The translations under genes and the position numbers were made by a program. A stretch of 64,000 bases of DNA from an uncultured Pseudomonadales bacterium. Its GTDB lineage: Bacteria > Patescibacteriota > Microgenomatia > UBA1400 > PJMF01. Numbering within the stretch: position 1 is the stretch's first letter; the number at the start of each line of letters is the position of its first letter. Below, one piece after another: positions 5,498 to 62,881 of the stretch. The notes below the pieces were generated by a model that searched no databases, was not told the DNA's origin, and saw nothing but the letters and a program-made list of their open reading frames with translations. Location: NCBI GenBank assembly GCA_964645645.1, contig CAZYBC010000003.1, forward strand, positions 13,369 through 77,368. The letters run 5' to 3'.

Positions 5498-5506
5498 ATA
5501 AAATTC

Positions 5507-6724: not shown

Positions 6725-6862
6725 GCAATTAAACTAATTTTAGTTTAGCGCTTTTTAATGAGAAAAAACAAGTAGAAGTTTAAAAATAAAAACAGAAATA
6801 ATTACTGAAAAATCAAATAAATATTTTGACGAAAATAAACTTAAGACTTAAGTTTATTTTCA

Positions 6863-8110: not shown

Positions 8111-8118
8111 CTTAACTT

Positions 8119-9567: not shown

Positions 9568-9624
9568 AATAATGTTATAATTTGCTTTGTTAAAAAAGCT
9601 GTTTAAAATTAAAATAAAACTTTT

Positions 9625-9708
9625 GCCTCTGTGGCGGAATTGGCAGACGCGCGAGACTTAAAATCTCGTGATCGCAAGATCGTGTGGGTTCGACCCCCTC
9701 CGGAGGCA
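9625..9708 (+). tRNA. tRNA-Leu (anticodon TAA)
   Basis: Cloverleaf readable by eye: acceptor GCCTCTG/CGGAGGC, anticodon stem CGAGA/TCTCG with loop CTTAAAA, long variable arm, and T-loop GGTTCGACCCC. Confidence 0.8.
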
Positions 9709-11755: not shown

Positions 11756-14700
11756 ATGAACCTCTTCAACAAAAAACTTTTAGCCCAACATCTAGTTAAA
11801 TATAATTTTCCTAACGGTCAACAATTAGAAGATATCCAAAAAATCCTATCCGGTTGGCAAAAAGCTCTAAAAGACAGCAATCTTGATCGTACTAAAGAAA
11901 CTAGTATTCAAGGTCAATTCTTAACTAAATTTTTTGAAACTATTCTTGGATACGACACGCAAACATCTGGCAAAGAACTTTGGCATTTAAACCAAGAACC
12001 TAAAACCGAAGTTGATGCACAAGAGGCTGATGGAGCATTAGGCTTTTTTACCAAAAATTCAAGTAAAGTTTTAGCAGTCATTGAACTTAAAGATGCAAAA
12101 ACTTCTCTAGACAAAAAACAATCTGGCAGAATCGGTAAACTCACGCCAGTTGAACAAGCTTTTCAATATCTTAATAAATTTGATGGCTGTAAGTGGGCAA
12201 TTGTTGCAAACTTTAGAGAGATTAGAATTTACAGCAAACTTCGAGGCCAAGGTTTCTATGAAAAATTTGATATTATTAGCCTGACAGAAGAACCTGAATT
12301 TAAACGTTTTTATTACATTTTTAATAAAAATAATCTTATTAATGAAGGTAAAATATCAGTTACTGAATCTTTAGCTGCTGATACTACTGTCCAAGAAGAA
12401 AATATCACCAAAAAATTCTATGAGCAGTACAAAGAAATTAGACTTAAAGTTCTTAATCATTTATTTGAATACAATCCACAGGTTGATCGCTTAGTGCTAG
12501 TAGAAAAAACTCAAAAATTATTAGATAGATTATTGTTTACTTTAGTCTGTGAAGACTCAACCACCCTTTTACCAACACACATTGTTAAAACCACCTATGA
12601 TAGAAGTTTTCAATCCTTTGCTCTATCTGGCAACAATCAGCGAGTCTGGCTAAACTTTAAAGGCTTGTTTAAAGCTATTGATGAAGGTGTTAAGGATATC
12701 GATCCGCCAATCAATAAATATAACGGTGGTTTATTCAAAAATGATGAAATTTTAGATAATTTGATTATTAAAGATGACATCTGGAAAGAAATTATCAAGC
12801 TTACTCAATATGATTTTGAAAGCGATCTAAACGTCAATGTTCTGGGTCATATCTTTGAACAAAGTATTAGTGACCTAGAAGAAATCAAAGCTCAAGTTGA
12901 GGGTGAAGCGGTTGATAAGAAAAAATCATTACGAAAAAAACAAGGTATTTTTTATACTCCAGAATACATTACCAAATTTATTGTTGAAAATACTGTGGGT
13001 AAATACCTAGAAAAAAATCCTGATAAACTCAAAACTATCAAAATTCTTGATCCTGCTTGCGGTAGTGGAGCATTTTTAAATCAAGCTCATTCATTCTTGC
13101 TCAATCAATACAAGGTTAGAGATGAAGAAAAGCAACTAGAATTACAAAAGCAAGGGAAAGCCACTAGTTTATTTGATCTAAGTTGGGTAGAAAATGATAA
13201 AACTATTTTACTTAATAATTTATATGGAGTTGACTTAAGCCCTGAGAGTGTCGAAATTACCAAGCTTGCTCTGTGGCTGAAAACTGCCAAGGCTACTGAA
13301 CCACTGCAAAATCTAGACAATAATATTAAGTGTGGTAACTCACTGATTGATGATCCAGAAATTGCTGGTGATAAAGCATTTAATTGGAATACTGAATTTA
13401 AAGACATTATGGATGAAGGCGGATTTGATGTGATTATTGGGAATCCACCGTATGTGTACGCTAGGGAAAAAATTTCTTTTAACGAAAAGGAATATTTCAA
13501 CTCTGAATATTTATCAGCTGAATATCAGCTCAACACTTTTGTTTTATTTATAGAAAAATCAATTAAACTCTTGAAAGATAAAGGATTGCTTGGTTTTATT
13601 ATTCCCAATAGTTTACTAAAAATTGGTTCAATTTCAAAATTAAGAAAATACATTTTAGACAATACATCTGTCAATATTATAGTAAGTTTGTCTGGGTATT
13701 CATTTGAGAGTGTTAATGTGGAAACCGTAATACTTGTGGTCCAAAAAAACTCAAAAAATTCATATGTAGATGTAAAGAAAATTGAATCAGATACTGATAT
13801 ATATTCACAAGAATCATTTTCTGTTAATAGCTCAAGATGGAAAACGAATCAAAACTATGAATTTGATATTTTCTCATCAGATTCCGACTTAAAGCTGATC
13901 AGTAAAATTCAAACAAGCTCTCAAACTCTTGAGAGCTTGTTTAACGTAAAGGCTGGACTTCAAGCATACGAAAAAGGCAAAGGAAATCCAGTTCAAAATG
14001 AAGAAGATGTTAGGAATAGACCATATGACTTCCAAACTAAGGTTGATGAAAATACCCATAAATATTTAGAAGGAAAAAATATATCAAGATATCTTATCCA
14101 AGGATTTAGTTACTGGCTTAAATACGGTGATAACTTAGCTGCACCAAGATCATTCGATATTTTTTGTAGACCAAGAATATTGATCAGGGAAATAACAAAT
14201 AACCAACCATACTGCTTTCATGCATCCTATGTTGAAGAAACTTTTTTAAATAATAGAAGCATCATCAATGTGTTGGATCCCCAAAATGATAGGCAGAAAT
14301 TGCTGAATTTATTGGCAATAATCAATAGCAAACTAGCATCATGGTATTTCGTTAAAACTAATCCAAAAGCCAATAGATCAATGTTTCCAAAGCTGATTCT
14401 TAGAGATCTAGCAAATTTTCCCATTACTTTACCCAAAAACAAGATAAATCTGGATAAAGTAGAAAAATTAATAATCAAAATTTCAAAATTAAATACAAAA
14501 CTGTTCACTGAAAAAGGTAGATTGAATGAAATTATTGTTTCAAAATTTAAGTTAAAAAATAAAACAAACTTAATCAATTTTTACCAACTCGGTTGGAACG
14601 GATTCATTGCAGAACTTGAAAAACAAAAAGTTAAACTTGATGTCAGTGAACAAGATAAACTTAATAAGTGGTTCAACAAAGTTGGAAAGTCTTTATTGGA

Positions 14701-14803
14701 TCTTGAACAAGAAATTAGTGATCTAGACAGACAAATTGATCAATTTGTCTATGAGCTTTATGACTTAACCAAAGAAGAAATAAAATTAATAGAAAAAGAA
14801 TAA
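11756..14803 (+). CDS. Type IIG/IIL restriction-modification enzyme (gamma-class N6-adenine MTase with target-recognition C-terminus; putative N-terminal nuclease)
   Basis: 1015-aa single polypeptide. SAM-binding motif I LDPACGSGAFL and catalytic motif IV VIIGNPPY. N-terminal region has an IELKDAK stretch compatible with PD-ExK. No BREX partners nearby. Confidence 0.8.
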   Translation: MNLFNKKLLAQHLVKYNFPNGQQLEDIQKILSGWQKALKDSNLDRTKETSIQGQFLTKFFETILGYDTQTSGKELWHLNQEPKTEVDAQEADGALGFFTKNSSKVLAVIELKDAKTSLDKKQSGRIGKLTPVEQAFQYLNKFDGCKWAIVANFREIRIYSKLRGQGFYEKFDIISLTEEPEFKRFYYIFNKNNLINEGKISVTESLAADTTVQEENITKKFYEQYKEIRLKVLNHLFEYNPQVDRLVLVEKTQKLLDRLLFTLVCEDSTTLLPTHIVKTTYDRSFQSFALSGNNQRVWLNFKGLFKAIDEGVKDIDPPINKYNGGLFKNDEILDNLIIKDDIWKEIIKLTQYDFESDLNVNVLGHIFEQSISDLEEIKAQVEGEAVDKKKSLRKKQGIFYTPEYITKFIVENTVGKYLEKNPDKLKTIKILDPACGSGAFLNQAHSFLLNQYKVRDEEKQLELQKQGKATSLFDLSWVENDKTILLNNLYGVDLSPESVEITKLALWLKTAKATEPLQNLDNNIKCGNSLIDDPEIAGDKAFNWNTEFKDIMDEGGFDVIIGNPPYVYAREKISFNEKEYFNSEYLSAEYQLNTFVLFIEKSIKLLKDKGLLGFIIPNSLLKIGSISKLRKYILDNTSVNIIVSLSGYSFESVNVETVILVVQKNSKNSYVDVKKIESDTDIYSQESFSVNSSRWKTNQNYEFDIFSSDSDLKLISKIQTSSQTLESLFNVKAGLQAYEKGKGNPVQNEEDVRNRPYDFQTKVDENTHKYLEGKNISRYLIQGFSYWLKYGDNLAAPRSFDIFCRPRILIREITNNQPYCFHASYVEETFLNNRSIINVLDPQNDRQKLLNLLAIINSKLASWYFVKTNPKANRSMFPKLILRDLANFPITLPKNKINLDKVEKLIIKISKLNTKLFTEKGRLNEIIVSKFKLKNKTNLINFYQLGWNGFIAELEKQKVKLDVSEQDKLNKWFNKVGKSLLDLEQEISDLDRQIDQFVYELYDLTKEEIKLIEKE

Positions 14804-32969: not shown

Positions 32970-35900
32970 ATGAATTGGCAAAGATGGTTTAAATCAATTT
33001 TAATTTCTTTAATTATTTTTACTTTTATTTGCCAAATACCACTAAACTTATTTAAAACTTATGCCAGCGAAAACAAGATTATCAAAGTGGGTGTTTATGA
33101 AAACAAACCCAAAGTTTATCGTGCTAACGATGGTAAAATTACCGGATTTTTTCCAGATGTTCTAAATTACATTGCTCAACAAGAAAATTGGCAATTGGAA
33201 TATGTACATGGCACTTGGGAAGAAGGTTTAAATCAATTAAAAAATGGTGAAATTGATCTAATGGTTGATGTTGCTATCTCTCCAGAAAGACAAGTGGAAT
33301 TTGATTTTACTAACGAGACTGTGTTAAATAGCTGGGCAGTTATTTGTGTTAAAAATAATTCTAAAATAAAATCATTTTCTGATTTGGAAGGTAAAAAAAT
33401 TGGTATTTTAAAATCAAGTGTCTATTTACAAGGTCCTCAATCAATTACTTACTACTTAAAATCATTTGGCATCAATGCTGAATTTATTTACGTTGATGAA
33501 TATTCTCAACTTTGCAAATTATTAGAAGAAGATAAAATTGATGCAGCAGTGGTTAGCAGAATTTTTGCTCTATATAATGCTAAAAATTATCAAAATATCA
33601 AACAAACAGATCTTGTTTTTAATCCAACAGAATTACGCTTTGCCCTTAATAAAAATAATCCCGATAACCCTTATTTAATTGAACGACTCGATTATTGGGT
33701 AAAAAAAATTAAGAATAAAGAAACTTATTATCAATTATTAAAAAAATATAATTTAGAAGAAGTAGAGATCATTAAAAAAATTCCACCTGTTTGGTTATTT
33801 TATGTCTTGCCAATCTTAATAGTTATTTTAACTGGCCTAATCATTACTATCATTTTGATTAGACGTTCTAAAAATATTGCTTTAAAAAAATGGAAATCTA
33901 GTGAAAAAAAGTTTCAATCTTTGTATGAATCAATGGATGAACTGATTGCAATTCATGAAATTATCAACGATAAACATGGTCAAGCCATTGATTACAAAAT
34001 TATTGAATGTAATAAGGCTTACAATCAATTAACCCATTTATCACGTGCCAAAGTAATTGGCCAATTAGCCTCAAAGCTTTATAAAATTAACCCACCGCCT
34101 TTTTTATCTTTTTTTGCTAATGTAGCTAAAACTGGCAAACCAGGACATTTTGAATATTATTCTCCAGATTTGAATCAACACTTATATGTCTCTGTTTTTT
34201 CGCCAGCCCCAGGGATATTCGGAACAATTATAAGTAACATGTCAGAACTCAAACAAATGGAACAGTCTTTAAAAATAGAACGTGACCGTGCTGAACTTTA
34301 TTTAAATACCGTTGAAACTATTATCGTAGCCTTAGACAAAGATGGAAAGATTATTTCGATTAATCGTAAAGGCTACGAGCTATTAGGCTATAAAAAGGAT
34401 GAATTAATTGGTCAATCCTGGTTTGAAACTTGTTTACTACAACCTGAAGGAAAAGAGAAAGTTTATCCTGTTTTTAAAAAATTAGTCACTGGTAAAGGCA
34501 AAAATGTTGAATTTTTTGAAAATAAAATAATTACCAAAAATGGAGAAATTAAACTAATTTCTTGGCATAACGCACTATTGCGTGATAAAAACAAAAAAAT
34601 TATTGGCACATTAAGTTCTGGCAACAACATTACTGTCCAAAAACAAGTTCAAGAAAAACTGATTCAAAGTGAACAGAAATTTGCTACTATTTTTGCCACT
34701 TCAACATATGCTATTACGATTACTCAATTAGCAGATGGTAGTTTTATTGATGTTAATGATGCTTATGTAAAACTAACTGGCTTTACTAAAAAAGAAACTC
34801 TGTTTAATTCATCAATCAGCCTAAAACTTTGGGCAAATCCAAAAGATAGAAAAACAGTAGTCAGTGACCTCCAAAAAGGTAAACCTGTTATTAACCGAGA
34901 ATTTCTTTTTAAAATCAAAGATGGCTCTTTAATAAATGGTTTATTTTCTGCTCGAATTATTAGTATTAATAACCAGCCATTCATCATGTCCAGCATTGCA
35001 GATATTACCGAACTAAAACAAGCAGAACAAAAAATCATAGAAACTAAAGACAGAGAGCATGCTATTTTAACAAGCATAGGCGACGCGGTTTTTGCAATAG
35101 ACACCAAAGGGATAATTTTATTATTTAATAAAATGGCTGAAAAACTTAGTGGCATTAGTACTGATCAAGCTATTGGGAACCATTATTCTAAAATTGTAAA
35201 ATTTATAAAAAAGAACAGTAATATTGTTGGGGATAATTTTATCAATCAAGCATTAGAAGAAGATAAAATTACGGCCATGGCTAATGATACTATGCTACTA
35301 AAATCAGATGGCAGTGAAATTCCCGTAGCAGATTCAGCTGCCCCAATCAAAGATATCAATGGCAAAATAATTGGCTGTGTTGTAGTTTTTCGTGATGTAA
35401 GCAAAGATTATGAGCTTAACAAAACCAAATCAGAGTTTGTGTCAATTGTTTCTCATGAATTACGTGCTCCATTAGGTATTATTAAAGCCTTTAATTCAAT
35501 GATTTTTGATGGTGATTATGGACCAATTAATCCTCAACTTAAAGAACCATTATCCGAAATTAAAAATTCAACCGACCACTTAGCTTCCTTAGTTAATGAT
35601 ATTTTAAATGTTTCTAGACTTGAATCTGGTAAACTATCACTAAAACTCTCTAAGTTTGATCCTCAAAAATTAATTAATGAAGCCGTAAAAAATTTTACCA
35701 CTGTGGTAAATAAAAAAGTAAATTTAAAAACAGGCAAATTAAACCAATCAATGATTGAAGCAGATCAAGATAAATTTTTGATTATTTTAAATAACTTACT
35801 AAGCAACGCTGTTAAATTTACTAATAAAGGAAGTATTACTGTCAAATCAGAAGCCGTTGGTAAATTTGTTAACTTTATAATTACTGATACAGGCATTGGC

Positions 35901-36098
35901 ATTAAATCCATTAATCAAAAAAATATTTTTGGGAAATTCCAACAAATTATTGAAAGTGAATCTGGCAAACCTCCAGGGACTGGTTTGGGTTTGTATATTA
36001 GCAAACAGTTGGTTGAAAAAATGGGAGGTAAAATTTGGCTGGAATCATCAATCCCTGGAAAAGGCAGTACTTTTATCTTCTCTCTTCCAAAAGCATAA
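32970..36098 (+). CDS. multi-domain sensor histidine kinase (periplasmic solute-binding family-3 domain, several PAS domains, HisKA and HATPase)
   Basis: Signal/transmembrane N-terminus. SBP_bac_3-like periplasmic region, then a transmembrane helix (WLFYVLPILIVILTGLIITIILI), repeated PAS-like blocks, H-box SHELRAPL, and GTGLGLYISKQLVEKMGGKIW. Confidence 0.8.
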   Translation: MNWQRWFKSILISLIIFTFICQIPLNLFKTYASENKIIKVGVYENKPKVYRANDGKITGFFPDVLNYIAQQENWQLEYVHGTWEEGLNQLKNGEIDLMVDVAISPERQVEFDFTNETVLNSWAVICVKNNSKIKSFSDLEGKKIGILKSSVYLQGPQSITYYLKSFGINAEFIYVDEYSQLCKLLEEDKIDAAVVSRIFALYNAKNYQNIKQTDLVFNPTELRFALNKNNPDNPYLIERLDYWVKKIKNKETYYQLLKKYNLEEVEIIKKIPPVWLFYVLPILIVILTGLIITIILIRRSKNIALKKWKSSEKKFQSLYESMDELIAIHEIINDKHGQAIDYKIIECNKAYNQLTHLSRAKVIGQLASKLYKINPPPFLSFFANVAKTGKPGHFEYYSPDLNQHLYVSVFSPAPGIFGTIISNMSELKQMEQSLKIERDRAELYLNTVETIIVALDKDGKIISINRKGYELLGYKKDELIGQSWFETCLLQPEGKEKVYPVFKKLVTGKGKNVEFFENKIITKNGEIKLISWHNALLRDKNKKIIGTLSSGNNITVQKQVQEKLIQSEQKFATIFATSTYAITITQLADGSFIDVNDAYVKLTGFTKKETLFNSSISLKLWANPKDRKTVVSDLQKGKPVINREFLFKIKDGSLINGLFSARIISINNQPFIMSSIADITELKQAEQKIIETKDREHAILTSIGDAVFAIDTKGIILLFNKMAEKLSGISTDQAIGNHYSKIVKFIKKNSNIVGDNFINQALEEDKITAMANDTMLLKSDGSEIPVADSAAPIKDINGKIIGCVVVFRDVSKDYELNKTKSEFVSIVSHELRAPLGIIKAFNSMIFDGDYGPINPQLKEPLSEIKNSTDHLASLVNDILNVSRLESGKLSLKLSKFDPQKLINEAVKNFTTVVNKKVNLKTGKLNQSMIEADQDKFLIILNNLLSNAVKFTNKGSITVKSEAVGKFVNFIITDTGIGIKSINQKNIFGKFQQIIESESGKPPGTGLGLYISKQLVEKMGGKIWLESSIPGKGSTFIFSLPKA

Positions 36099-36121
36099 AT
36101 AAATATGTCATAATAAATTTA

Positions 36122-36544
36122 ATGTCAAAAATTCTTATTGTTGATGACGATTTAGTTTATATTAGAATCTATCAATTAAAACTAAAAAATGATGGTTATG
36201 ATGTGGAAATTGCTAATGATGGGGAAGAAGCCTTACTCAAAGTTGAGACTTTTAAACCAGATCTGATTTTATTAGATATTATGATGCCTAAAATTGATGG
36301 CTTTGAAGTTTTAAAACAACTTAAAAAAAATTCTGCAACCAAAAATATTCCCGTTATTATGCTCACTAACTTGGGCGGAGATGAAGCTAACATTCTAAAA
36401 GGTATTGATTTGGGAGCAGTTTCTTATTTAATTAAATCTGCTTATACACCAAAAGAAGTTGTCCAAAAAATCAAAGAAATCTTAGCTGCTTATGCTCCAG
36501 AAATACCTAAAGTTAAAACGGTGATGAAAAAATTAGAATTTTAA
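36122..36544 (+). CDS. single-domain response regulator (receiver)
   Basis: Start reassigned to MSKILIVDDD at 36122; the tracked ORF 36035 overlaps the kinase end. D in LILLDIMMP and KNIPVIMLT. Confidence 0.75.
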   Translation: MSKILIVDDDLVYIRIYQLKLKNDGYDVEIANDGEEALLKVETFKPDLILLDIMMPKIDGFEVLKQLKKNSATKNIPVIMLTNLGGDEANILKGIDLGAVSYLIKSAYTPKEVVQKIKEILAAYAPEIPKVKTVMKKLEF

Positions 36545-46895: not shown

Positions 46896-47434
46896 GGCAG
46901 GTCCTTTCTTAATAATAGTTTAGTACTATTATTAACCATAATAAGATCACTTTGCAAGAAAGGACTTTGTTCTTTTCTAAAATTGCTAGAAATATTTTTA
47001 AAATTAAATATAAAAAATAAAAATCCAATAATTAAACTAATAAATTGAATAAATAAAAGAAATCTTCTTCCACCAAGCAAATCTGTTTTTTTTGTTATTA
47101 ATTTAAATATTCTAGGAAATGTCTCAAAAACACCCAACTTTTTTTTAATTTTACTAAAATTTGGAAAATATTCTTCTTCTATAGTATTAAAACTTTCAAT
47201 TGATTCAACTAATCTTACTATAAAAAATAGTAATCCGAGAGTTATTGATATTAGAACAGATATTGTTGATAGTTTTTCTTCTATAGTTAAAATTTGCCCA
47301 ATATTCAATAATGCAAAAAAACCAATAGCAATAATAATCATTTGTTCAGATAATCTTTGTTCATCTATCAGAAAAATCTTTTGAAGATTATTTAGTTCAG
47401 ATATTGCTTTATTTTCTGACCAAGGATTTTTCAT
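46862..47434 (-). CDS. hypothetical membrane protein (190 aa)
   Basis: Several hydrophobic segments; overlaps the downstream ORF by 34 nt. Confidence 0.3.
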   Translation of the reverse strand: MKNPWSENKAISELNNLQKIFLIDEQRLSEQMIIIAIGFFALLNIGQILTIEEKLSTISVLISITLGLLFFIVRLVESIESFNTIEEEYFPNFSKIKKKLGVFETFPRIFKLITKKTDLLGGRRFLLFIQFISLIIGFLFFIFNFKNISSNFRKEQSPFLQSDLIMVNNSTKLLLRKDLPCQREIQAEDF

Positions 47435-47519
47435 TGTATAAATTTTAACATCTAAATTTTTAAATTCACTATCAGCTCAACACTTGGCAAACTCCTTAAA
47501 TCATGTTAAAACTAGCTTA

Positions 47520-47712
47520 TTAAAAATTAATTAAGATTGTTTGGAAGTAAGGTGAAAATCCTTCGCTGTGCCGCAACGGTTAAAGTCCGATACAAGCAAT
47601 CACTTTGAATTATTTTCAAAGTTAAACTGACGAGCATCGGGTTTTTGGTTGCCCAATAAATATTGGCAAACAAAAAAATTTCCCCGTATTGCTCCTCTTT
47701 TGAGGAGTTTTT
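47520..47712 (+). promoter_or_regulatory. cobalamin (AdoCbl-variant-like) riboswitch with terminator expression platform
   Basis: GGAAGTAAGGTGAAAATCCTTCGCTGTGCCGCAACGGTTAAAGTCCGATAC matches the cobalamin aptamer core (GGTGnAAnTCC ... CnGnCCCGCnACnGTnA ... AGYCnGAnAC B12-box-like), without a long peripheral extension. Followed by the hairpin gctcctcttttgaggag plus TTTTTT at 47691-47712, immediately before the ATG. Confidence 0.55.
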
Positions 47713-47714
47713 TA

Positions 47715-48320
47715 ATGGCTATTAACGCCGAATTACTTAGACCAACACGAGTTTTTCATCCAGAAAAAAGTACTCATTTCTGGCAAGATTTAACAGCCGT
47801 AGCTGTTGGTTTTTTTAGTAACTTAAAACTCAATTCCAAAAATCTTTTTCACCCCAATACTAATAAACAAGCTGGTGAAACTTGGCAAAGTTTGTCGTAT
47901 CTAAACAATCGCGATCAGTATCAGCAGCTAACTCAGTTGCTTGAATATATGGCTTTAGAATTGCGAACATATTTTGATGAATATGTCGCTTTAAAAGTTA
48001 TCAAAACTTATCCTAATTTTGGCGAAAAAGGCATTGATAATATTGCTCCATTTAATTTAGTCAGTATTGCTCAGCAAACTAAACAAGATTTAGCCGAAAA
48101 AGGTTTTGATACAACTAGAGCTGATTTAGAAATTATCGCTATGCAAAAACTGCTTAATTTTCTTAGTGATGAACAAGTTCCGATTGGCAGTTGTCTCGTT
48201 TACATTAGTCCACGTGGGCCTAAATATATGTATTTAGGTTATGAACTAAGCAATAACAATTATCTTAATTTGTATCTTAAAAACCGGGCCGGGGCAAGCT
48301 CGATTAATTCAATTGCTTAA
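47715..48320 (+). CDS. hypothetical protein (201 aa), first gene under the riboswitch
   Basis: Start reassigned to MAINAELL, right after the terminator. The tracked start 47649 lies inside the expression platform. Soluble, no motif. Confidence 0.45.
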   Translation: MAINAELLRPTRVFHPEKSTHFWQDLTAVAVGFFSNLKLNSKNLFHPNTNKQAGETWQSLSYLNNRDQYQQLTQLLEYMALELRTYFDEYVALKVIKTYPNFGEKGIDNIAPFNLVSIAQQTKQDLAEKGFDTTRADLEIIAMQKLLNFLSDEQVPIGSCLVYISPRGPKYMYLGYELSNNNYLNLYLKNRAGASSINSIA

Positions 48321-48786
48321 CTATGACGTTAATGAAAGTTTAATTAATCAATTTTTACCTTTTTTAAGCCAACAACAAGCAGCGCAAATTTATTCACCGT
48401 TTCAATCAGCTAATCCTTTGCATCATTTAGCCGCTGGGTCTTTAAGTGATGAACATTTTTTGATTAATACTTTAATGCTCATTCCAGCTGACCAATTCAA
48501 TTTAGATCTAGTCATTCAGCAAGCGTTCCAAAATTCAGCGCAATGGCTAACTAAAATTAGCGACTTTCCTCAATTTGATTATCAAGCTTATGTTCAGCAA
48601 GAAAATCAATTATTAGCTTTATTTAAACAATTAACTGAACAAGTTTTTTCTGCAAATGAAGATCCCCAGTTAAACGCCCAAAAGCTTGATCAATTAGTGG
48701 CCATTATGAAAAAAATTTTCAAAAATGGACAGAAGAAAATGCGAGCAACTATCATCCAGTTAAACAAATTAGCAAACTTAATTTGA
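48313..48786 (+). CDS. hypothetical protein (157 aa)
   Basis: Overlaps the upstream stop by 8 nt (translational coupling); Gln-rich; no motif. Confidence 0.45.
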   Translation: MLNYDVNESLINQFLPFLSQQQAAQIYSPFQSANPLHHLAAGSLSDEHFLINTLMLIPADQFNLDLVIQQAFQNSAQWLTKISDFPQFDYQAYVQQENQLLALFKQLTEQVFSANEDPQLNAQKLDQLVAIMKKIFKNGQKKMRATIIQLNKLANLI

Positions 48787-49367
48787 TGGATATTGAAACT
48801 GAATGGCGCTTAGCTTGTAAAAAAATCACTGGCCAACAACTCAATCAACAAGAGCAACAACACGCGAAACAACTTCAACAACGTTATCAACTTAATCCTA
48901 GTTTGCCTTTACAAAAAATTAGCCACTTAAATTTTTGTTTACCACGTTTTAATTTAGCTAGAAATTTACAAATCCATACTGGGCAAGGATTAAGTAATTT
49001 ACAAGGTTTAGAACTAAATCAATTTTTGCGAAAACAAAAATACATTACTTTAAAACTAGCTGGGCAAGAATGGAAAGTGCCAGCTAGTTACTTAAAAGGC
49101 AAAGGTTGTTATGAAAATGGAGGAGTGGCCTATGGCCCGTGTGGCATTCCTTTAGCGCAAGATCCTTATGCCATTACTTTGGCAGATTATCAGCAGTTGT
49201 TAGACCGTCAACGCTCAGAAAAAAAATCATCCAAAAAAGCTAATCAAAATTTACCGGCCACTAACGATAATGAAAAAATTGATTTGCCACCAGTGAGTCT
49301 AACTGCTTTTATTAATAGTTTGGTTTTTGGCGACCCACTAGAAATCACTAACTTAGACTTAGATTAG
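48783..49367 (+). CDS. hypothetical protein (194 aa)
   Basis: Overlaps the upstream stop by 4 nt. Gln-rich N-terminus and a GCYENGGVAYGPCGIP Cys/Gly motif. Confidence 0.45.
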   Translation: MMDIETEWRLACKKITGQQLNQQEQQHAKQLQQRYQLNPSLPLQKISHLNFCLPRFNLARNLQIHTGQGLSNLQGLELNQFLRKQKYITLKLAGQEWKVPASYLKGKGCYENGGVAYGPCGIPLAQDPYAITLADYQQLLDRQRSEKKSSKKANQNLPATNDNEKIDLPPVSLTAFINSLVFGDPLEITNLDLD

Positions 49368-50371
49368 CTTTGCCCAGCTAATTGCCCACACGCGGCTTTA
49401 ATATCATCACCCATGGTTACTCTAATTGAATAAGCAATGCCAGCTTGATCTAAAATTTGGGCAAAATGATGAATGCGATTTTTGCTTGGCCTAGCAAAAC
49501 TTTCACCGGCTACTGGATTGTACGGAATTAAATTAACATGAGCTAAACGATTTTTTAATAATTTAGCTAATTGTTGCGCATGTTCAGATGAATCATTAAA
49601 GTTTTCAATTAAAATGTATTCATAAGTAATTCTTTTATTAGTCAAACGAACATATTCGTCCATGGCTTGAAATAATTCATCCAAAATATAAGTTTTAGCC
49701 ACAGGCATTAATTGTTCACGCAACGCTTGATTGGGCGCGTGCAAACTAATTGCCACTCTGCCTCTAAAACCTAGTTTAACAATTTGTCTAAATTCTCGCA
49801 CAAAGCCAGCGGTAGAAAGTGTCACTCGTCTTTTACCTAACGCAAACTTTTTTTCATCAGTTAAAGTTTGAATAGCTTGCCAAACATTGTCTAAATTGAG
49901 CAACGGTTCACCCATACCCATAAAAACTACATTCGTAATTTGCTGATTTCCACTCTGAAGTAGCCGGGCAAAATATAAAACTTGATCGACAATTTCTTGA
50001 GCATTTAATTTACCCAAAAAAACCATTTTGCCAGTGGCGCAAAATTTACAACCCACGGGACAACCTACCATACAACTAACACAAACACTATTGCGCCCAT
50101 CTTCATGTTGCATCAGTACTGCTTCTAATTTTTGACCATTTTCCCGCTCTAATAAAACCTTCGTTGTGCCGCCATCGGCTGAAACTAATTTTTTAATAAA
50201 TTTAAGCGAACTAAAAGCCACCGCTGCTTTTAGCTTAGTGCGTAAATCTTTAGACCAAGTAGTAAGCTGATCAAAATCACTAATCAATTGCTGATAAATA
50301 GCTTGATTAAATTGTTGCCAGCGGTAATTAGGTAATTTTTCTTGTTCAAAAAATTGCTCGATCGTTATCAT
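49364..50371 (-). CDS. rlmN: dual-specificity RNA methyltransferase RlmN (radical SAM)
   Basis: CVSCMVGCPVGCKFCATG radical-SAM cluster in the RlmN/Cfr context, MGMGEPLLN, and C-terminal catalytic Cys (AACGQL). Confidence 0.8.
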   Translation of the reverse strand: MITIEQFFEQEKLPNYRWQQFNQAIYQQLISDFDQLTTWSKDLRTKLKAAVAFSSLKFIKKLVSADGGTTKVLLERENGQKLEAVLMQHEDGRNSVCVSCMVGCPVGCKFCATGKMVFLGKLNAQEIVDQVLYFARLLQSGNQQITNVVFMGMGEPLLNLDNVWQAIQTLTDEKKFALGKRRVTLSTAGFVREFRQIVKLGFRGRVAISLHAPNQALREQLMPVAKTYILDELFQAMDEYVRLTNKRITYEYILIENFNDSSEHAQQLAKLLKNRLAHVNLIPYNPVAGESFARPSKNRIHHFAQILDQAGIAYSIRVTMGDDIKAACGQLAGQS

Positions 50372-50420
50372 TACCAGGTATTGTATAATTTTTAATAAGA
50401 GAATACTATCTAAAATAGCT

Positions 50421-51131
50421 ATGCTTAAAAAATTAGAAAAAGAACTCCAACAATTAGCTAATCCACAACATGCTCAAACTTTGAGCCGTTTTTTTAAAAC
50501 TGGCCCAGGTCAATATGGAGAAGGCGATATTTTTTTAGGCATTAAAACACCGGTATTGCGACAATTAGTTAAAAAATATAAAGATTTAAGTTTGTCGGAT
50601 TTAACTCAATTACTTAAAAGTAAAATTCACGAACATCGAGCTGTTGCCTTATCCATTTTAACAACTAGATTTGCTAAAGCCGATGACAATCTTCGTCAGC
50701 AAATTTATCAGTTTTATTTAGCTAACACTCAATACATTAATAACTGGGATTTGGTTGACATTAGCGCCCCTAAAATTGTAGGTTCATATTTATTAGATAA
50801 AGAAAAGGAACGAAAAATTCTTTATTCTTTGGCAAAATCACAAGACTTATGGCAAAAAAGAATTGCCATGCTTAGCACTTATACTTTTATCAAAAAATCT
50901 CAATTTACAGATGCTTTAGCCATTGCTCAAATTTTAGTTAATGATCAGCATGATTTAATTCATAAAGCTGTAGGCTGGATGTTGCGCGAATTAGGCAAAA
51001 TTGATCAAAATGTTGAAGAACAATTTCTTAACCAATACGCCGCGACCATGCCTCGTACTATGTTGCGCTATGCTATTGAAAAATTTAATGACAATAAAAG
51101 AAAACATTATCTAAATTTTCGTGCTAAATAA
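50421..51131 (+). CDS. DNA alkylation repair protein (AlkC/AlkD-like HEAT-repeat glycosylase family)
   Basis: N-terminal ANPQHAQTLSRFFKTGPGQYGEGDIFLGIKTPVLR is typical of the DNA_alkylation family. ~236 aa, all-helical. Confidence 0.6.
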   Translation: MLKKLEKELQQLANPQHAQTLSRFFKTGPGQYGEGDIFLGIKTPVLRQLVKKYKDLSLSDLTQLLKSKIHEHRAVALSILTTRFAKADDNLRQQIYQFYLANTQYINNWDLVDISAPKIVGSYLLDKEKERKILYSLAKSQDLWQKRIAMLSTYTFIKKSQFTDALAIAQILVNDQHDLIHKAVGWMLRELGKIDQNVEEQFLNQYAATMPRTMLRYAIEKFNDNKRKHYLNFRAK

Positions 51132-51159
51132 TAGCCTTACTGCGAAATAAAACAACAAA

Positions 51160-52500
51160 ATGAAAAAAATTTTAGCCTTAATTTTACTTAGCTACTTTAG
51201 ATTTTTTGCTCAGCTACAACTTAAAAAAATTAAACCGTTAATTATTGGCGTTACTGGTACAGCTGGTAAAACCAGCACCCGTGATGAAATTTATGCCATC
51301 CTCAAAAACCACTTTAAAGTAAAAGTTAGTTATAAAGCCAATAGTGAAAGTGGCATTCCGCTTAATATTTTAGGCTTAGCGCCAACTAATTTTTCATTAC
51401 TAGATTGGTTGCGCTTAGCCATTTTAGCGCCTGTAAAATTGCTTACCAATTGGGAAAAATATGATATTTATTTGGTAGAAATGGCCATTGATGGCCCAAC
51501 TCCTCCCAAAAACATGGGCTACCTCTTAACCATTATTAAGCCTGACATTGGCGTTTTTCTAAATACCGCCCTTGTCCACAGTCTTGCTTTTGATCATTTA
51601 GTGGAAGAAACCGATCCAAAATTACGAGCTAAAAAAATCCGCCAAATCATTGCCGCTGAAAAGGGTAAATTAATTACTCAATTACCAAAAAATGGTTTAG
51701 CGGTTTTAAACGCTGATGATGAATCAGTAGCTAATTTTGCTAAACAAACTCAAGCCCAAGTAACTTTATTTGGTCAAAATAAATCCGCCCAATTAAAAAT
51801 CGGCCTGATTACTCAAAATTTAAGCGGCAGTACTTTTACCCTCAGTTATCAACAAGAAAGCGTAACAATCAAAATTAAAAATTATTTACTCCCTGACCAT
51901 TTTGCTTACAGTTTAGCTGCCGCCTGTGCAGTAGGCTTGCATTTAGGTTTAACTCTAGCCACCTGTGCCAAAAACCTTGAAGCTAATTTTAAACTTGCTC
52001 CTGGTAGAGCGACATTAATTCCAGGAATTAAACAAAGTTTAATTTTTGATAGCTCTTACAACTCTTCTCCAAATACAGTGATTGATGGGCTGACAATGTT
52101 GAGCAAAATCAAAGCCAAACGCTTAATTGCGGTACTAGGGGACATGCGCGAAATGGGCCAGCAGAGCAAAACCGAACACGAAAAAGTCGCCCAATTTGCC
52201 GCCAAAACTGCTGATCAAATTATTTTAGTTGGCCAAGAAATGCAAGCTTATGCTTTGCCAGTGTTGGAAAAACTACAAGCTAAAGTAACAAGTTTTGACA
52301 ATGCCTATCAAGCCGCTGATTACTTAAAAACCCAAATTAAGCCAAGTGATCTAATTTTTGTCAAAGGGTCACAAAATACTATTTTCTTAGAAATTGTCGT
52401 AGAAGCCATTATGGCTAATCCCAGTAAAGCTGAACAATTGTTATGCCGAAGAGGGGAAATGTGGGGAAAAAAGAGAATATCAATAAAATCACTTGCTTGA
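51160..52500 (+). CDS. murF: UDP-N-acetylmuramoyl-tripeptide--D-alanyl-D-alanine ligase-like Mur ligase
   Basis: GVTGTAGKTST P-loop, DSSYNSSPNT (MurF DDSYNANP-like), 446 aa. Confidence 0.65.
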   Translation: MKKILALILLSYFRFFAQLQLKKIKPLIIGVTGTAGKTSTRDEIYAILKNHFKVKVSYKANSESGIPLNILGLAPTNFSLLDWLRLAILAPVKLLTNWEKYDIYLVEMAIDGPTPPKNMGYLLTIIKPDIGVFLNTALVHSLAFDHLVEETDPKLRAKKIRQIIAAEKGKLITQLPKNGLAVLNADDESVANFAKQTQAQVTLFGQNKSAQLKIGLITQNLSGSTFTLSYQQESVTIKIKNYLLPDHFAYSLAAACAVGLHLGLTLATCAKNLEANFKLAPGRATLIPGIKQSLIFDSSYNSSPNTVIDGLTMLSKIKAKRLIAVLGDMREMGQQSKTEHEKVAQFAAKTADQIILVGQEMQAYALPVLEKLQAKVTSFDNAYQAADYLKTQIKPSDLIFVKGSQNTIFLEIVVEAIMANPSKAEQLLCRRGEMWGKKRISIKSLA

Positions 52501-59494: not shown

Positions 59495-62400
59495 TTATAG
59501 CGTTAAAACAAAGCCAATTTGCGCTAGATTAACCACTACCGTTGCTTTTTTTTCCAATTCAGGCAGATATTCCGCAAAAACCTGTCGCACTTGACCAATT
59601 AAGACAGCTTGCTTGGCTGGCTCAACTGGATTAGCTTGGTTTTGCCAAACGTAATTCATGTAATCAATAAATTGTTCTTGATAAAGTTTTACTGACTCCA
59701 CTAATTTAGGCCCATCGAGGTGCATACCGCATTCATAATTTTCATCACCACGGCATTCTGCCCGATTTTTTCCTGGCTTAGTACATTGTTCACAGCCAAC
59801 ACTGGCATGAGTTTCTTTTAAGCCATGTTCTGGCAAATGGTAGACAGCTGCCAACCGTTGTTTTTCGGCATCCATGTACTCTTTAGTCGCTGCTATCCAA
59901 GGATGGACGTGTAATTGGCCATCTTTAAGTTTTAAAACTTGATTACCCGCACGACCGCGCAAAGAGCTAAGCATCACTGGAGGACTATCTAGATCTAGAG
60001 TCCATTCTGCCAAGGCTAAAACTTTTCTTAACCCACAACACATTTTATTAAAAACCTGTTTATTAGTAGCTATTTCTTCTTGATCAGCTGAATCAGGCCA
60101 AAATTCATATTGGCTTTGGGGAAAACTGAAAATCGCTTCTAATTTTTCTACTAATGGTGATTTGACTTTAATGATATCTAAATTTAAAACTTCAGCAACT
60201 TGATCTAAATAAGCTAAAACTTCTGGGAAATGATTGCCTGTATCTCCAAAAACAACTGGCACTTTAAGCTCAGTTTTTTGGCTAATTTCCGCAATCGCTG
60301 ATAAAGCAAAACCACTATTAGGTTGCGCGGAGGTCATTAAATAAACGTTGCCTGGATCAAGCTTCACTGCCCAATCTAGAATTTCTTGAGGATTAAATTG
60401 GCCCATAAATTGATTGAGTTTTTCTAATTCATCAAGAGGCAAGGCCATAATGTCGGTTTTGGTATAAATTTTACCAAAACTTTGTAGCATTTTTTTCTCA
60501 ACTGAGTTGTGGTAAAGTTGTCTTTCCATTTCTCTAAAATTGCTGACCGTTTCCATTAAACGCCGACAGTTTTCTTGCCAAAGCTGAGTAATCATAAGTA
60601 GTTTATATTCCACGTCTAATAAACGATGAGAAACTTGAAAGCCATCTCTGTTTTCAATTAAACTTTCTGCTAAAATTTCTTTGCGTTTCATTAAAAGCTC
60701 AGTGATTAATTGCACTAACTCAATTTTTGGCCCAAAACGTAACATCGAAGGATGTTTTTTGCCTTTGTTAACAGCAACTCTGAGATTACCAGCTTCATCA
60801 GCTTCTGATTCCGCAGTAATATCAATAAAAGGGTTACCTGTAAAAATTTTGCTATCATTAAACTGTAATTGTCCGTTTTTTAAGCTTGTGCCAGCTCTTA
60901 ATAAAGCTCTGATTCTCTTTAATTCAGTATCGCTAAAAGCTTTACCATCTGTACCTTTAATTAAAAATGATAAAGTCATAGATGGGACTAAATCTGGATT
61001 ATTATCATCCATTAATTTAATTTGTTGCTGTTTAGCTAATTGCTTTCTAGTTAAAGAACGCAACCAATCAATACCTGCTTGTAAATAACCTTCTGGGAGA
61101 TGATGAAATTCATTATATTTTTTGGCTACTCCTAATTCTTTAGCCAAAACATTAAAGTTAACAGCTAAATCATCAGCTAAACCGGCTTCTTGTAATTTGG
61201 CTACTAATAATTTTTCCAAATCATCTGGCAAAAAACCAATGCCAAAGTAACGATAAAGTAAAGTTAATTCTTCTTGGCTAGCATATTGAATTTTATCTCT
61301 TAAAATAGCTATAGCTTGATCAGTATAGTAAAAAACTCCACCCAATTTTAAACCGCCAATTGCTTTGGAAAACGTGCTCATTAAAACCGCAGAAATATTA
61401 TTTTGTTCACAAGTTTCTAAAATTCTTTCTGGATTAACTAACCATCTTTCTTGAGCCACATCTAATACAAGCATAATTTGGCCTTGACGCTCCAAAAATT
61501 GAGCGACAATTTCTTTTTGGGCTGAAGTAAGTTGCTCGCTGGCTAAAAGTTTTTCCAAATTAAAATAGCTAATTAAAGTTTCAATATCTTTATAAATCAA
61601 ACCACCTTTGGGCGGAATCGCAATCACATGAGAATAAACTGGGGCGGGTAAACCTTCCGGTATCTCTAATTTTAAACATCGTTCTAAACCTTTGACTAAG
61701 GTATCTAAATGTAATCTGGAAAATTCTGCAAAAGATAAAGCTTCACCATCTTTTTTACGATAGGGGATAGTATTTAATTCCAAATGAGGGGTTGTGTTTT
61801 TTACTCCATCCTGATTAGCATATTCAGCTAAACCTCCTCCTAAGGCTGTCCCTTCTGCCGCATCTTTAACTGTACTGCCAGCCTCTACCACTTGGCCCAT
61901 TACCCCAATTGCTAAACCGCCTGCAAAACCAGCCGGATAAACCCCATGCGTGCCAGAAATAGCAAAAGATTGAGCAAAACTACGACCATTTTGACGATAT
62001 AAAGCAGTTTCATCTCTTAATACATCAAACAAAAACTTGGCAGCTTGTTTTCTTTGTTGAGGATTTTCTAATCTCTCTAAACGCATGGATAACTGCAACC
62101 AAGCTAAAGTATTTTTAAAAACTTGACTATTAAGATTAAGTGAATTGCCAGTTGTTGAATCCACGCCTAAAAGCAAAGGAATTAAGTTGTCTAAAAATTT
62201 TTGATGTTTTTCTCTAATTTTTTGCAAACATTGCACCTGTTGTTCATTTAAAGGTTGATTATGATCAAAATGAGCAAAAATAGCAGGAAAAGTAAGTTGG
62301 GCTAAATTTAGTAAAATTGCTTCTTCTTTTTCTTTAGTTAAAAAATTACCTTGAGTTAAACCATCCACATATGGATCAGATCCTGTCGGCAAAACCTTGG

Positions 62401-62881
62401 CTAAAGCTTGTCTTAATGCTTTTGCTTCTTTGCTAAGAGAGTCTGGCAATCCTCCTGGTAATTCTGGTTTTTCTTGACCAGCTTGAATTTGAGCTTCTAG
62501 CTCAACCCAAGAACGAGGCGTATTTCTGGTATCAACACCTTGATCTAAACATTTAGTCCAGGTTTGTAAAACTTCTTGCCTTAAGTCTGGGGATAAGGTT
62601 TCTAGTTGTTCTGCTAAAACTGACTCTGCTAAATTAGCTCTGGGTAAAAAAATGCCTACCTCCGCTAATTTAGTTTCTAAAATTTTAATCAATTCTCGCT
62701 CAGAATGGGGTTTTTGATCTTCTGGCAAATTTCCAAGCTCATTCAGAAAAAGTTTAGCAGCGATAATTGGATTAAGTGCTCCTATATCCCAAAGACTAGC
62801 TAAGTTGTTAGGTAAATGTCCTGGTTCAAAATCAATAGAATTATTAGGTTGAGTTTCAAGTTGATGCATAGACTTTTTCAA
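59495..62881 (-). CDS. 1128-aa multidomain protein: N-terminal unknown region, central PLP-dependent (cysteine-desulfurase/aminotransferase-like) fold, C-terminal PAPS-reductase-like ATP-pyrophosphatase domain
   Basis: Central LVLDVAQERW...MSTFSKAIGGLKLGGVFY resembles the PLP-lysine region of NifS/IscS (SxHK-x2-GPKGxGxLY) with Ser in place of His. C-terminal domain has CCGLRKVLALAEW and ECGMH (CysH/DndC-family KxECGLH signature), plus a CEQC...C...C cluster. Confidence 0.55.
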   Translation of the reverse strand: MKKSMHQLETQPNNSIDFEPGHLPNNLASLWDIGALNPIIAAKLFLNELGNLPEDQKPHSERELIKILETKLAEVGIFLPRANLAESVLAEQLETLSPDLRQEVLQTWTKCLDQGVDTRNTPRSWVELEAQIQAGQEKPELPGGLPDSLSKEAKALRQALAKVLPTGSDPYVDGLTQGNFLTKEKEEAILLNLAQLTFPAIFAHFDHNQPLNEQQVQCLQKIREKHQKFLDNLIPLLLGVDSTTGNSLNLNSQVFKNTLAWLQLSMRLERLENPQQRKQAAKFLFDVLRDETALYRQNGRSFAQSFAISGTHGVYPAGFAGGLAIGVMGQVVEAGSTVKDAAEGTALGGGLAEYANQDGVKNTTPHLELNTIPYRKKDGEALSFAEFSRLHLDTLVKGLERCLKLEIPEGLPAPVYSHVIAIPPKGGLIYKDIETLISYFNLEKLLASEQLTSAQKEIVAQFLERQGQIMLVLDVAQERWLVNPERILETCEQNNISAVLMSTFSKAIGGLKLGGVFYYTDQAIAILRDKIQYASQEELTLLYRYFGIGFLPDDLEKLLVAKLQEAGLADDLAVNFNVLAKELGVAKKYNEFHHLPEGYLQAGIDWLRSLTRKQLAKQQQIKLMDDNNPDLVPSMTLSFLIKGTDGKAFSDTELKRIRALLRAGTSLKNGQLQFNDSKIFTGNPFIDITAESEADEAGNLRVAVNKGKKHPSMLRFGPKIELVQLITELLMKRKEILAESLIENRDGFQVSHRLLDVEYKLLMITQLWQENCRRLMETVSNFREMERQLYHNSVEKKMLQSFGKIYTKTDIMALPLDELEKLNQFMGQFNPQEILDWAVKLDPGNVYLMTSAQPNSGFALSAIAEISQKTELKVPVVFGDTGNHFPEVLAYLDQVAEVLNLDIIKVKSPLVEKLEAIFSFPQSQYEFWPDSADQEEIATNKQVFNKMCCGLRKVLALAEWTLDLDSPPVMLSSLRGRAGNQVLKLKDGQLHVHPWIAATKEYMDAEKQRLAAVYHLPEHGLKETHASVGCEQCTKPGKNRAECRGDENYECGMHLDGPKLVESVKLYQEQFIDYMNYVWQNQANPVEPAKQAVLIGQVRQVFAEYLPELEKKATVVVNLAQIGFVLTL

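Follow-up and report, generated by a model that had tools for sequence, protein, structure and literature searches.

The window analysed here is a 64,000-nucleotide stretch of contig CAZYBC010000003.1 (assembly GCA_964645645.1, positions 13,369 to 77,368), and our subject is a leader RNA together with the coding region behind it, which lie on the forward strand at 47520–49367 of this window. We consider it likely that the locus consists of a canonical repressing cobalamin riboswitch and a single gene, which is split here by two frameshifts. The riboswitch is not new in kind, being a member of the cobalamin clan with an expression platform that works like that of the Priestia megaterium metE riboswitch; the new part is its cargo, a fold-orphan protein family that is mainly found in the Candidate Phyla Radiation (CPR) and tied to B12 control. 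In the following, we refer to it as family A.

The leader RNA belongs to the cobalamin riboswitch clan. In a comparison of the entire window with 4227 Rfam families, it matched RF01689 (AdoCbl-II, clan CL00101) over the full model (1–81). The score of 47.4 bits exceeds the gathering score (36.5), and the E-value of 2.4e-8 for this comparison is far beyond chance. A preliminary description of this DNA had proposed a cobalamin riboswitch at this site, and the covariance-model scan bears this out. The aptamer core, GGTGAAAATCC...CTGTGCCGCAACGGTTAAAGTCCGATAC, spans 47551–47593, and the following elements are predicted in and around it:

47527–47603, + strand: cobalamin riboswitch aptamer, class-II-like, without a P6 extension (match to RF01689)
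47535–47543 and 47593–47601, + strand: P1/P3, GATTGTTTG pairing with CAAGCAATC
47549–47563, + strand: P4 hairpin with the loop GUGAAAAU
47567–47575, + strand: P5/L5, with L5 (UGCCG) at 47569–47573
47577–47579 and 47587–47589, + strand: P6, CGG pairing with CCG
47583–47593, + strand: B12-box-like core, AAGUCCGAUAC

Across 38 related leaders, compensatory changes are seen in nine of the 15 predicted pairs, all of them in P1/P3 and P4, while P5 and P6 are invariant and hence uninformative with regard to covariation. The GUGAAA loop of P4, the (U)GCCG of P5/L5, P6 and the J6/3 segment AGUCCGA are invariant in these leaders as well and agree with the consensus at high posterior probability. The aptamer would be expected to bind a corrinoid. 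Its P6 loop counts just seven nucleotides (UUAAAGU), and the P6 extension, which discriminates class I from class II aptamers, is absent. A short extension is found in most related leaders, including that of the orthologous locus L001, and these score better with RF01482. The L001 leader is 85% identical to that of the window and differs from it by a P6-extension hairpin of ~20 nt (4826–4860 in L001 versus 47577–47589 in the window), which explains why the best Rfam model is RF01482 in one case and RF01689 in the other. Given this orthologous leader with its extension, the class-II look of the window aptamer is a recent loss within its lineage. This difference in the P6 extension may alter the corrinoid selectivity between close relatives.

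Behind this leader, the preliminary description had listed three translationally coupled genes. The three open reading frames (ORFs) and their overlapping ends are indeed there, at 47715–48320 (201 aa), 48313–48786 (157 aa) and 48783–49367 (194 aa), but they do not represent three genes: the first and third ORF share one frame from which the second is shifted, and single-chain homologs of 554–580 aa span both junctions. One of these, P0001, locates the two shifts to runs of adenines:

47715–49367, + strand: family A gene, ~550 codons when corrected, broken into three ORFs (homolog alignment)
48279–48283, + strand: frameshift 1, an extra A; A5 run CTTAAAAACC, where A4 keeps the frame (...NLYLK-TGPGQARL...) and P0001 has LYIKTGHNQAML
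48709–48715, + strand: frameshift 2, a missing A; A7 run ATGAAAAAAATTTT, where A8 keeps the frame (...IMKK-NFQKWTEENA...) and P0001 has IMKQHFQKWTEENA

When the three pieces were fused into one query and compared with 5.8 billion proteins, P0001, a single chain of 564 aa, was the one match, with 57% identity over 95% of the query. The BLASTP alignment runs through both junctions unbroken, pairing NNYLNLYLK-TGPGQARLIQLL with NNYINLYIK-TGHNQAMLVQLL of P0001 at the first and LVAIMKK-NFQKWTEENASNYH with LVKIMKQ-HFQKWTEENATNYH at the second. Likewise, tblastn searches with P0001, P0002 and P0007 return three high-scoring segments each, in frames 1, 2 and 1 and with breakpoints at 48277–48281 and 48708–48720, and the identity to P0001 is even across the segments (61, 55 and 55%). 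The corrected protein, that is, the translation of 47715–48281, 48283–48714 and 48714–49364, retains the motifs ISPRG, NFCLP, GCYE and GPCGIPL and is homologous to family A over its full length, and the syntenic loci L001 and L005 each carry one intact gene. The overlapping stops and starts thus arise from two 1-nt shifts in homopolymers within a single gene. That they instead delimit three separate, translationally coupled genes in a B12-regulated operon is highly improbable, even though ORFs with overlapping ends exist and gene callers have split them in public assemblies, too (representatives P0003, P0006 and P0004). Every other strongly similar family member is a single chain of 515–816 aa, and the alignments cross the junctions without loss of identity. 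Moreover, the second ORF offers a TTG start only, with no ATG or GTG and no Shine-Dalgarno sequence, and frameshift 1 sits in the turn of a predicted β-hairpin, which makes the fragments implausible as separate proteins.

Most likely, the window gene was inactivated recently, which left a pseudogene behind a riboswitch that is still intact. In Logan assemblies of the Sequence Read Archive runs SRR11845627, SRR11845628 and SRR11845629, the DNA is 100% identical to the window over 47300–48667 and 48461–51188, both A-runs included; the A7 run of frameshift 2 is also present in the assembly of SRR11845629 (L002), and the exact 201-aa truncated product is called in those of SRR11845627 and SRR11845628. 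The window contains 146 A/T runs of at least seven bases, yet none of its other long ORFs, which reach 1128 aa, is interrupted, and the genes around the locus show one-to-one synteny with L001 and L005. The agreement of three runs, the intactness of the other ORFs and this synteny argue that the frameshifts exist in the organism. Since no stop interrupts the ~550 corrected codons, all three segments are similarly close to P0001 and the riboswitch has stayed intact, the inactivation would be recent.

Some of these observations also weigh against a pseudogene. Some 550 stop-free codons in a genome of 34% G+C also fit a reversible phase variation or a sequencing error, and the three runs probably stem from one study, although a systematic homopolymer error is unlikely. 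It is accordingly conceivable, if unlikely, that the organism has an unbroken gene and that both frameshifts are homopolymer errors of sequencing or assembly: each is a single-base length change in an A-run, the second compensates the first (+1, then −1), and the corrected frame has accumulated no stops. However, the same A5 and A7 runs recur in the per-run assemblies of all three runs with 100% identity over 1.1–2.7 kb, the remaining long ORFs are unbroken despite their many homopolymers, and a run of five adenines is not error-prone on short-read platforms. It is less probable still that the frameshifts are functional, with slipped-strand phase variation or transcriptional or ribosomal slippage restoring some full-length protein. 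In AT-rich bacteria, tracts as long as A7/A8 are subject to slippage, and both the open frames and the intact riboswitch would suit such a mechanism, but it needs two independent corrections together, and an A5 run is too short for efficient slippage. Moreover, the orthologs in L001 and L005 lack both shifts, L001 even lacks the A8 tract at the second site, and the three assemblies show no heterogeneity.

Family A, to which this pseudogene belongs, comprises 65 cluster representatives at E ≤ 1e-3 when 1.84 billion representatives are searched exhaustively with HMMER. Typical members have ~600 residues, with most lengths between 550 and 750 aa; nearly all of them are single chains of 515–816 aa, and the only short high-scoring entries are the three fragments of the window organism itself. 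The named members are listed as ‘hypothetical protein’ of Candidatus Woesebacteria and Pacebacteria/Paceibacterota, with Microgenomates also among the named relatives, and it is these names that suggest a CPR affiliation for the window; further members, recovered by the DNA scan described below, come mostly from Patescibacteria metagenome-assembled genomes (MAGs), and a search with P0001 alone found no relative in GTDB genomes. In an alignment of 39 sequences, Y101, G108, R137, S167, W344, C419 and C487 (P0001 numbering) are invariant; the motifs ISPRG, (H)C..GTP and GCY...GPC.IPL show conservation as well, as do H418 (77%), C476 (85%) and H248 (82%).

Family A has no detectable relative in sequence or fold. 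The three window ORFs have no Pfam match at or above the gathering score, the 39 members have no relevant matches in Pfam or NCBIfam, and searches of PHROGs and PADLOC gave nothing meaningful. Searched with the family profile, the PDB returns no sequence at E ≤ 1. No significant match to BtuB/C/D/F/G/H/M, CbrT, Cob/Cbi enzymes, MetE or NrdA/D/J was thus obtained, and there was no match at the fold level, the predicted fold being neither a TIM barrel nor a ribonucleotide-reductase (RNR) barrel. This agrees with the preliminary description, which had recognized no B12 transporter, B12 biosynthesis enzyme or B12-independent isozyme at this locus. Family A proteins are soluble and have neither signal peptides nor transmembrane segments. 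Their C-termini show a pattern of their own: 17 of the 65 representatives (P0001–P0065) end in -AA and most of these in -LAA, which resembles the ClpXP degron of the ssrA tag, and in many others the last residue is a hydrophobic one (V or A), while the window copy, ending at 49364, closes with -NLDLD. This pattern suggests that proteolytic turnover may be built into a B12-repressed protein.

The link between riboswitch and gene is a property of family A. In all seven loci that were found via the protein only (the window, L001, L005 and L008–L011), a cobalamin aptamer immediately precedes the gene on its own strand, and four of these loci (L008, L009, L010 and L011) lack synteny with the window. 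With RF01689, the leaders of the window (47.4 bits), L005 (48), L008 (38) and L010 (39.2) all exceed the gathering score of 36.5. Those of L001 (48.6), L009 (47.1) and L011 (34.7) score best with RF01482, all below its gathering score of 50 (E = 3.5e-8 to 2.5e-3); because of their P6 extension, they are missed at the Rfam gathering threshold and seen only in E-value mode. A scan of 185,579 species genomes with the leader signature TGTGCCGCAACGG-N40-70-GACGAGCATCG identified 57 loci, in ~20 of which the first downstream gene encodes a family A protein or a distant relative with the same Cys module at its C-terminus. Together with the window and the other six loci found via the protein, family A is thus the first gene after this type of leader in ~27 loci, and its homologs do sit downstream of B12 riboswitches in other genomes, a recurrence that the preliminary description had proposed to look for.

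In at least six loci, family A is followed in the same orientation by the gene for a giant protein of 1260–1505 aa (L008, at 5109–9626, and L044, L055, L016, L026 and L027). These giant proteins have low-complexity regions of acidic character, a hydrophobic segment that is rich in Gly and Ala and spans the membrane several times, and near the C-terminus the motif HETGH, which resembles that of metalloproteases. Apart from this co-transcribed protein, the gene neighborhoods revealed no functional partners, but merely synteny at the level of the lineage (RlmN, AP endonuclease and FolD). In most other loci of the scan, the first gene encodes a helical protein of ~230–265 aa that is unrelated to family A and has no Pfam match; its clusters c1, c3 and c5 and locus L012 are related to each other (hhalign probability 86–95%), but not to family A. 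This helical family occurs in Patescibacteria and in one TM6/Dependentiae genome (CP011212.1), at L014, L017, L019, L020, L022–L024, L029, L030, L032–L034, L038, L042, L043, L045, L051–L053, L056, L057, L059–L061, L063–L065, L067 and L068, and cluster c1 is often followed by what looks, by sequence appearance, like an OmpR-type response regulator. Many contigs with a CPR-type leader and genes (among L013, L015, L016, L018, L022 and ~25 other loci) are titled ‘uncultured Pseudomonadales bacterium’ in third-party-annotation MAG records, and one each is titled Rhizobium, Methylococcaceae and Woesearchaeota; these labels look like placeholders or errors.

Between the aptamer and the start codon, the leader can adopt mutually exclusive structures, from which we infer that the switch represses its gene upon ligand binding. 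The elements involved, with the names L5 and L13 and their assignment taken over from the P. megaterium metE riboswitch (PMC10327014), are predicted as follows:

47627–47640, + strand: P13 hairpin with L13; stem C27-U28-G29-A30 : U37-C38-G39-G40, loop CGAGCA at 47631–47636
47632–47694, + strand: antiterminator of the ligand-free conformer, GAGCA(U)CGGG (47632–47641) pairing with CCCG(UAU)UGCUC (47683–47694)
47691–47713, + strand: intrinsic terminator and Shine-Dalgarno sequestor, GCUCCUC-UUUU-GAGGAGU (47691–47708) plus U-run (terminator scan and fold)

The most conserved of these is a segment that we term box1 (GACGAGCAUCG, 47629–47639), which is invariant in the seven leaders found via the protein alone and corresponds to the 4-bp P13 stem (x2-x1-G-A / U-C-G-y1) with its loop CGAGCA. 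Among 59 distinct leaders, the two outer pairs of this stem are standard in 59 (C/U:G) and 50, respectively, with covariation in the second, which is U-A in 24 leaders and C-G in 22. By itself, P13 is barely stable (−0.6 kcal/mol), but L13 is complementary to L5 (UGCCG) over five base pairs with a bulged A47633, and this duplex amounts to −6.0 kcal/mol. We therefore suggest that L5 and L13 may form a kissing loop. This is proposed from complementarity and analogy, rather than from covariation, because L5 and L13 are invariant; that they never vary in any leader examined weighs somewhat against the proposal, as the search pattern itself fixed both in 57 of the 64 leaders.

The 3′ side of P13 has a second potential partner. 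In the antiterminator, which encloses a variable hairpin, it pairs with the 5′ arm of the terminator, and the two conformers are near-isoenergetic in the window (−28.6 kcal/mol for the terminator versus −27.9 for the enforced antiterminator); the minimum-free-energy fold contains the terminator in the window and the antiterminator in L001. Furthermore, GAGCAUCG(GG) is complementary to (CC)CGAUGCUC, i.e. box2. We find this element, (C)GAUGCUCC, in 44 of the 64 leaders; it overlaps the 5′ arm of the terminator, so that the pairing of box1 with box2 and the terminator both require the same GCUC and exclude each other. The terminator itself has a 7-bp stem with four G-C pairs, a 4-nt loop and a U-run (47708–47713), and is found with identical hairpin and U-run in L001, L005, L011 and many further loci. 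In the window, as the preliminary description had reported, the T-run ends at 47713 and is followed by an A and then by the ATG at 47715. The 3′ arm of the terminator contains GAGGAG (47702–47707), the Shine-Dalgarno sequence 7 nt before the AUG, and transcription and translation would therefore both be blocked in the window clade. In c1-type loci, the terminator lies 60–100 nt upstream of the real ribosome-binding site, which implies purely transcriptional control.

Taken together, these structures suggest the following mechanism. Once the aptamer (47527–47603) binds a corrinoid, L5 (UGCCG) would kiss the loop CG[A]GCA of the marginally stable P13. With P13 locked, the GCUCCUC/GAGGAGU hairpin and its U-run would form, so that transcription is terminated and initiation at the AUG (47715) blocked. 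Without corrinoid, P13 would melt, leaving its loop and 3′ strand, GAGCAUCGGG, free to form the antiterminator with CCCG..UGCUC, the 5′ arm of the terminator, and the downstream gene would be expressed. The opposite polarity is quite unlikely, but one observation speaks for it and thus against a repressing switch: in many loci, box1 is able to pair with the 3′ core of the aptamer (GUCCGAU : AUCGGAC, 7+3 bp). In such an ON-switch, the ligand-free box1 (GAGCAUCGG) would pair with the 3′ strand of P6 and J6/3 (GUCCGAUCUUC) and thereby free the terminator, whereas in the ligand-bound state the aptamer would keep its own core and box1 would make the antiterminator. The complementarity between AGUCCGAUCUUCA and CGAGCAUCGGAC amounts to −12 to −15 kcal/mol in these loci, and an activating corrinoid riboswitch has precedent (PMC10327014). 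However, no more than ~4 bp of this complementarity remain in L005, L008, L010 and the window clade, and the same is true of every c1- and c3-type leader; the complementarity is explained by the resemblance of the P13 5′ strand, (C)CGA, to the P6 3′ strand, CCGA. By contrast, the L5/L13 pairing explains why box1 is invariant in all leaders and fits an experimentally proven repressing design.

Some further features of the leader deserve mention. Upstream of the aptamer, we read a putative promoter from the sequence, which a consensus promoter scanner did not flag at 47484–47512, and a small hairpin separates the aptamer from P13:

47484–47512, + strand: putative sigma-70-type promoter; −35 TTGGCA (47484–47489), 17-nt spacer, extended −10 TG-T-TAAAAC (47504–47512), predicted transcription start ~47519
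47603–47621, + strand: variable spacer hairpin between P1 and P13, CTTTGAA-TTATT-TTCAAAG (minimum-free-energy fold)

The 10-mer ATGTTAAAAC upstream of the aptamer is kept in the syntenic loci L001 and L005. The spacer hairpin was considered as a P13/L13 that kisses the GUGAAAAU loop, and was rejected: its stem changes compensatorily in L001 (CTTTAGA/TCTAAAG), but it is freely variable and absent from c1- and c3-type leaders, and hence not the kissing-loop partner. Another hairpin that resembles a terminator and ends in a T7 run (TTAACAGCCGTAGCTGTTGG TTTTTTT) lies within the coding sequence at 47790–47816, ~75 nt past the start codon. In many family members, such as those at L009 (536–553) and L010 (1349–1372), GAGGAG doubles as codons 2–3, such that AUG-AGG-AGU, encoding M-R-S, forms the 3′ arm of the terminator/sequestor. 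The start of the protein is thus constrained by RNA structure, which partly explains the conserved ‘MRS’ N-terminus of family A; gene callers often choose an upstream in-frame AUG inside the hairpin instead (MLLFMRSF...).

What the intact protein does can be approached through its control. The OFF logic of the switch hints that it may act when B12 is scarce, and we tentatively regard a role in the acquisition or handling of corrinoids as possible. CPR bacteria are B12 auxotrophs with tiny genomes that cannot make B12, and this auxotrophy, the co-transcribed giant envelope-type proteins and the presence of several unrelated proteins in the same regulon are consistent with such a role. It has to be held against this assignment that it derives from the regulatory logic only. 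A B12-independent enzyme with a new fold, which would replace a B12-dependent one in deoxyribonucleotide, methionine or queuosine metabolism when corrinoids are scarce, is a more doubtful proposition, and so is a role of some other kind. The same OFF logic governs metE and nrdDG, and at only ~20% identity, family A keeps a set of polar and Cys/His residues unchanged in a way that resembles an enzyme, with Y101, R137, S167-P-R-G, W344, C419 and C487 (nearly) invariant; the lack of signal peptides and transmembrane segments and the many -LAA ends further suggest a cytoplasmic, proteolytically controlled protein. However, family A is neither homologous to a known isozyme nor similar to one in fold, at least six loci encode a giant protein of membrane or extracellular type next in the same operon, and control of an unrelated ~240-aa helical family by the same type of riboswitch is less like enzyme replacement. 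In Pfam scans, the ten largest other genes of the window included no B12-dependent enzyme. More speculative, and rather unlikely in its entirety, is a CPR corrinoid-starvation program of new folds, in which family A, the ~240-aa helical family and the co-transcribed giant envelope proteins would obtain or handle host corrinoids or sense host contact through the B12 supply.

Elsewhere in the window, we noted a 1015-aa fused restriction-modification enzyme of the Eco57I/MmeI type (11756–14803), a 1042-aa sensor histidine kinase with solute-binding and PAS domains (32970–36098), whose end is overlapped by a 169-aa ORF (36035–36544), and a 1128-aa protein whose only recognizable part is a C-terminal PAPS-reductase domain (59495–62881).

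To our knowledge, it has not been described how CPR bacteria acquire, use or do without corrinoids, and our literature search yielded nothing relevant on cobalamin riboswitches in CPR/Patescibacteria, on family A or on the box1 sequence. A family without detectable sequence or structural relative is held under B12 control in widely diverged CPR genomes, with a second orphan family alongside it. Both are concrete candidates for new B12 biology, for which the riboswitch-guided discovery of BtuG and BtuH provides a precedent, and CPR genetics could make use of the compact, conserved leader as a native regulatory part. For the window itself, the annotation should be corrected from three genes to one frameshifted pseudogene; the broken gene lowers the value of this locus, but not that of the family.

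The closest counterpart of the switch is the repressing metE riboswitch of P. megaterium, in which L5 has the consensus UCCCG and the 3′ side of P13 doubles as antiterminator (PMC10327014). Both share a weak P13 whose 3′ side is the 5′ strand of the antiterminator and an intrinsic terminator that forms once P13 is locked; the ligand-dependent L5–L13 kissing loop of the metE switch would have a counterpart in the window, which we propose by analogy. Unlike the metE aptamer, that of the window lacks the P6 extension and scores with RF01689 rather than with the classical family. Its L5 reads UGCCG instead of UCCCG, its proposed kissing loop includes a bulged A, the 3′ arm of its terminator is at the same time a Shine-Dalgarno sequence, and its cargo is not metE. 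The compact aptamer without P6 extension is instead reminiscent of class-II RF01689 riboswitches such as env8HyCbl. The env8 kissing loop tolerates a bulge or mismatch, and env8 acts on translation, with the ribosome-binding site inside P13 (PMC10327014); the window leader differs from it in having a terminator/antiterminator pair.

On the side of the cargo, the logic of family A corresponds to that of MetE and NrdDG/NrdAB, which are likewise repressed in the presence of B12. Unlike these enzymes, however, family A has no Pfam or NCBIfam match, and its predicted fold is neither of their barrels (TIM or RNR). BtuG and BtuH of Bacteroidetes were found through B12-riboswitch operons in B12 auxotrophs at a time when their function was obscure, and proved to bind B12 (PMC8941943). 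Family A shares no sequence or fold similarity with them and comes without a signal peptide, a lipobox or an adjacent recognizable transporter, but just as in their case, it is the placement behind a B12 riboswitch by which the family was recognized.

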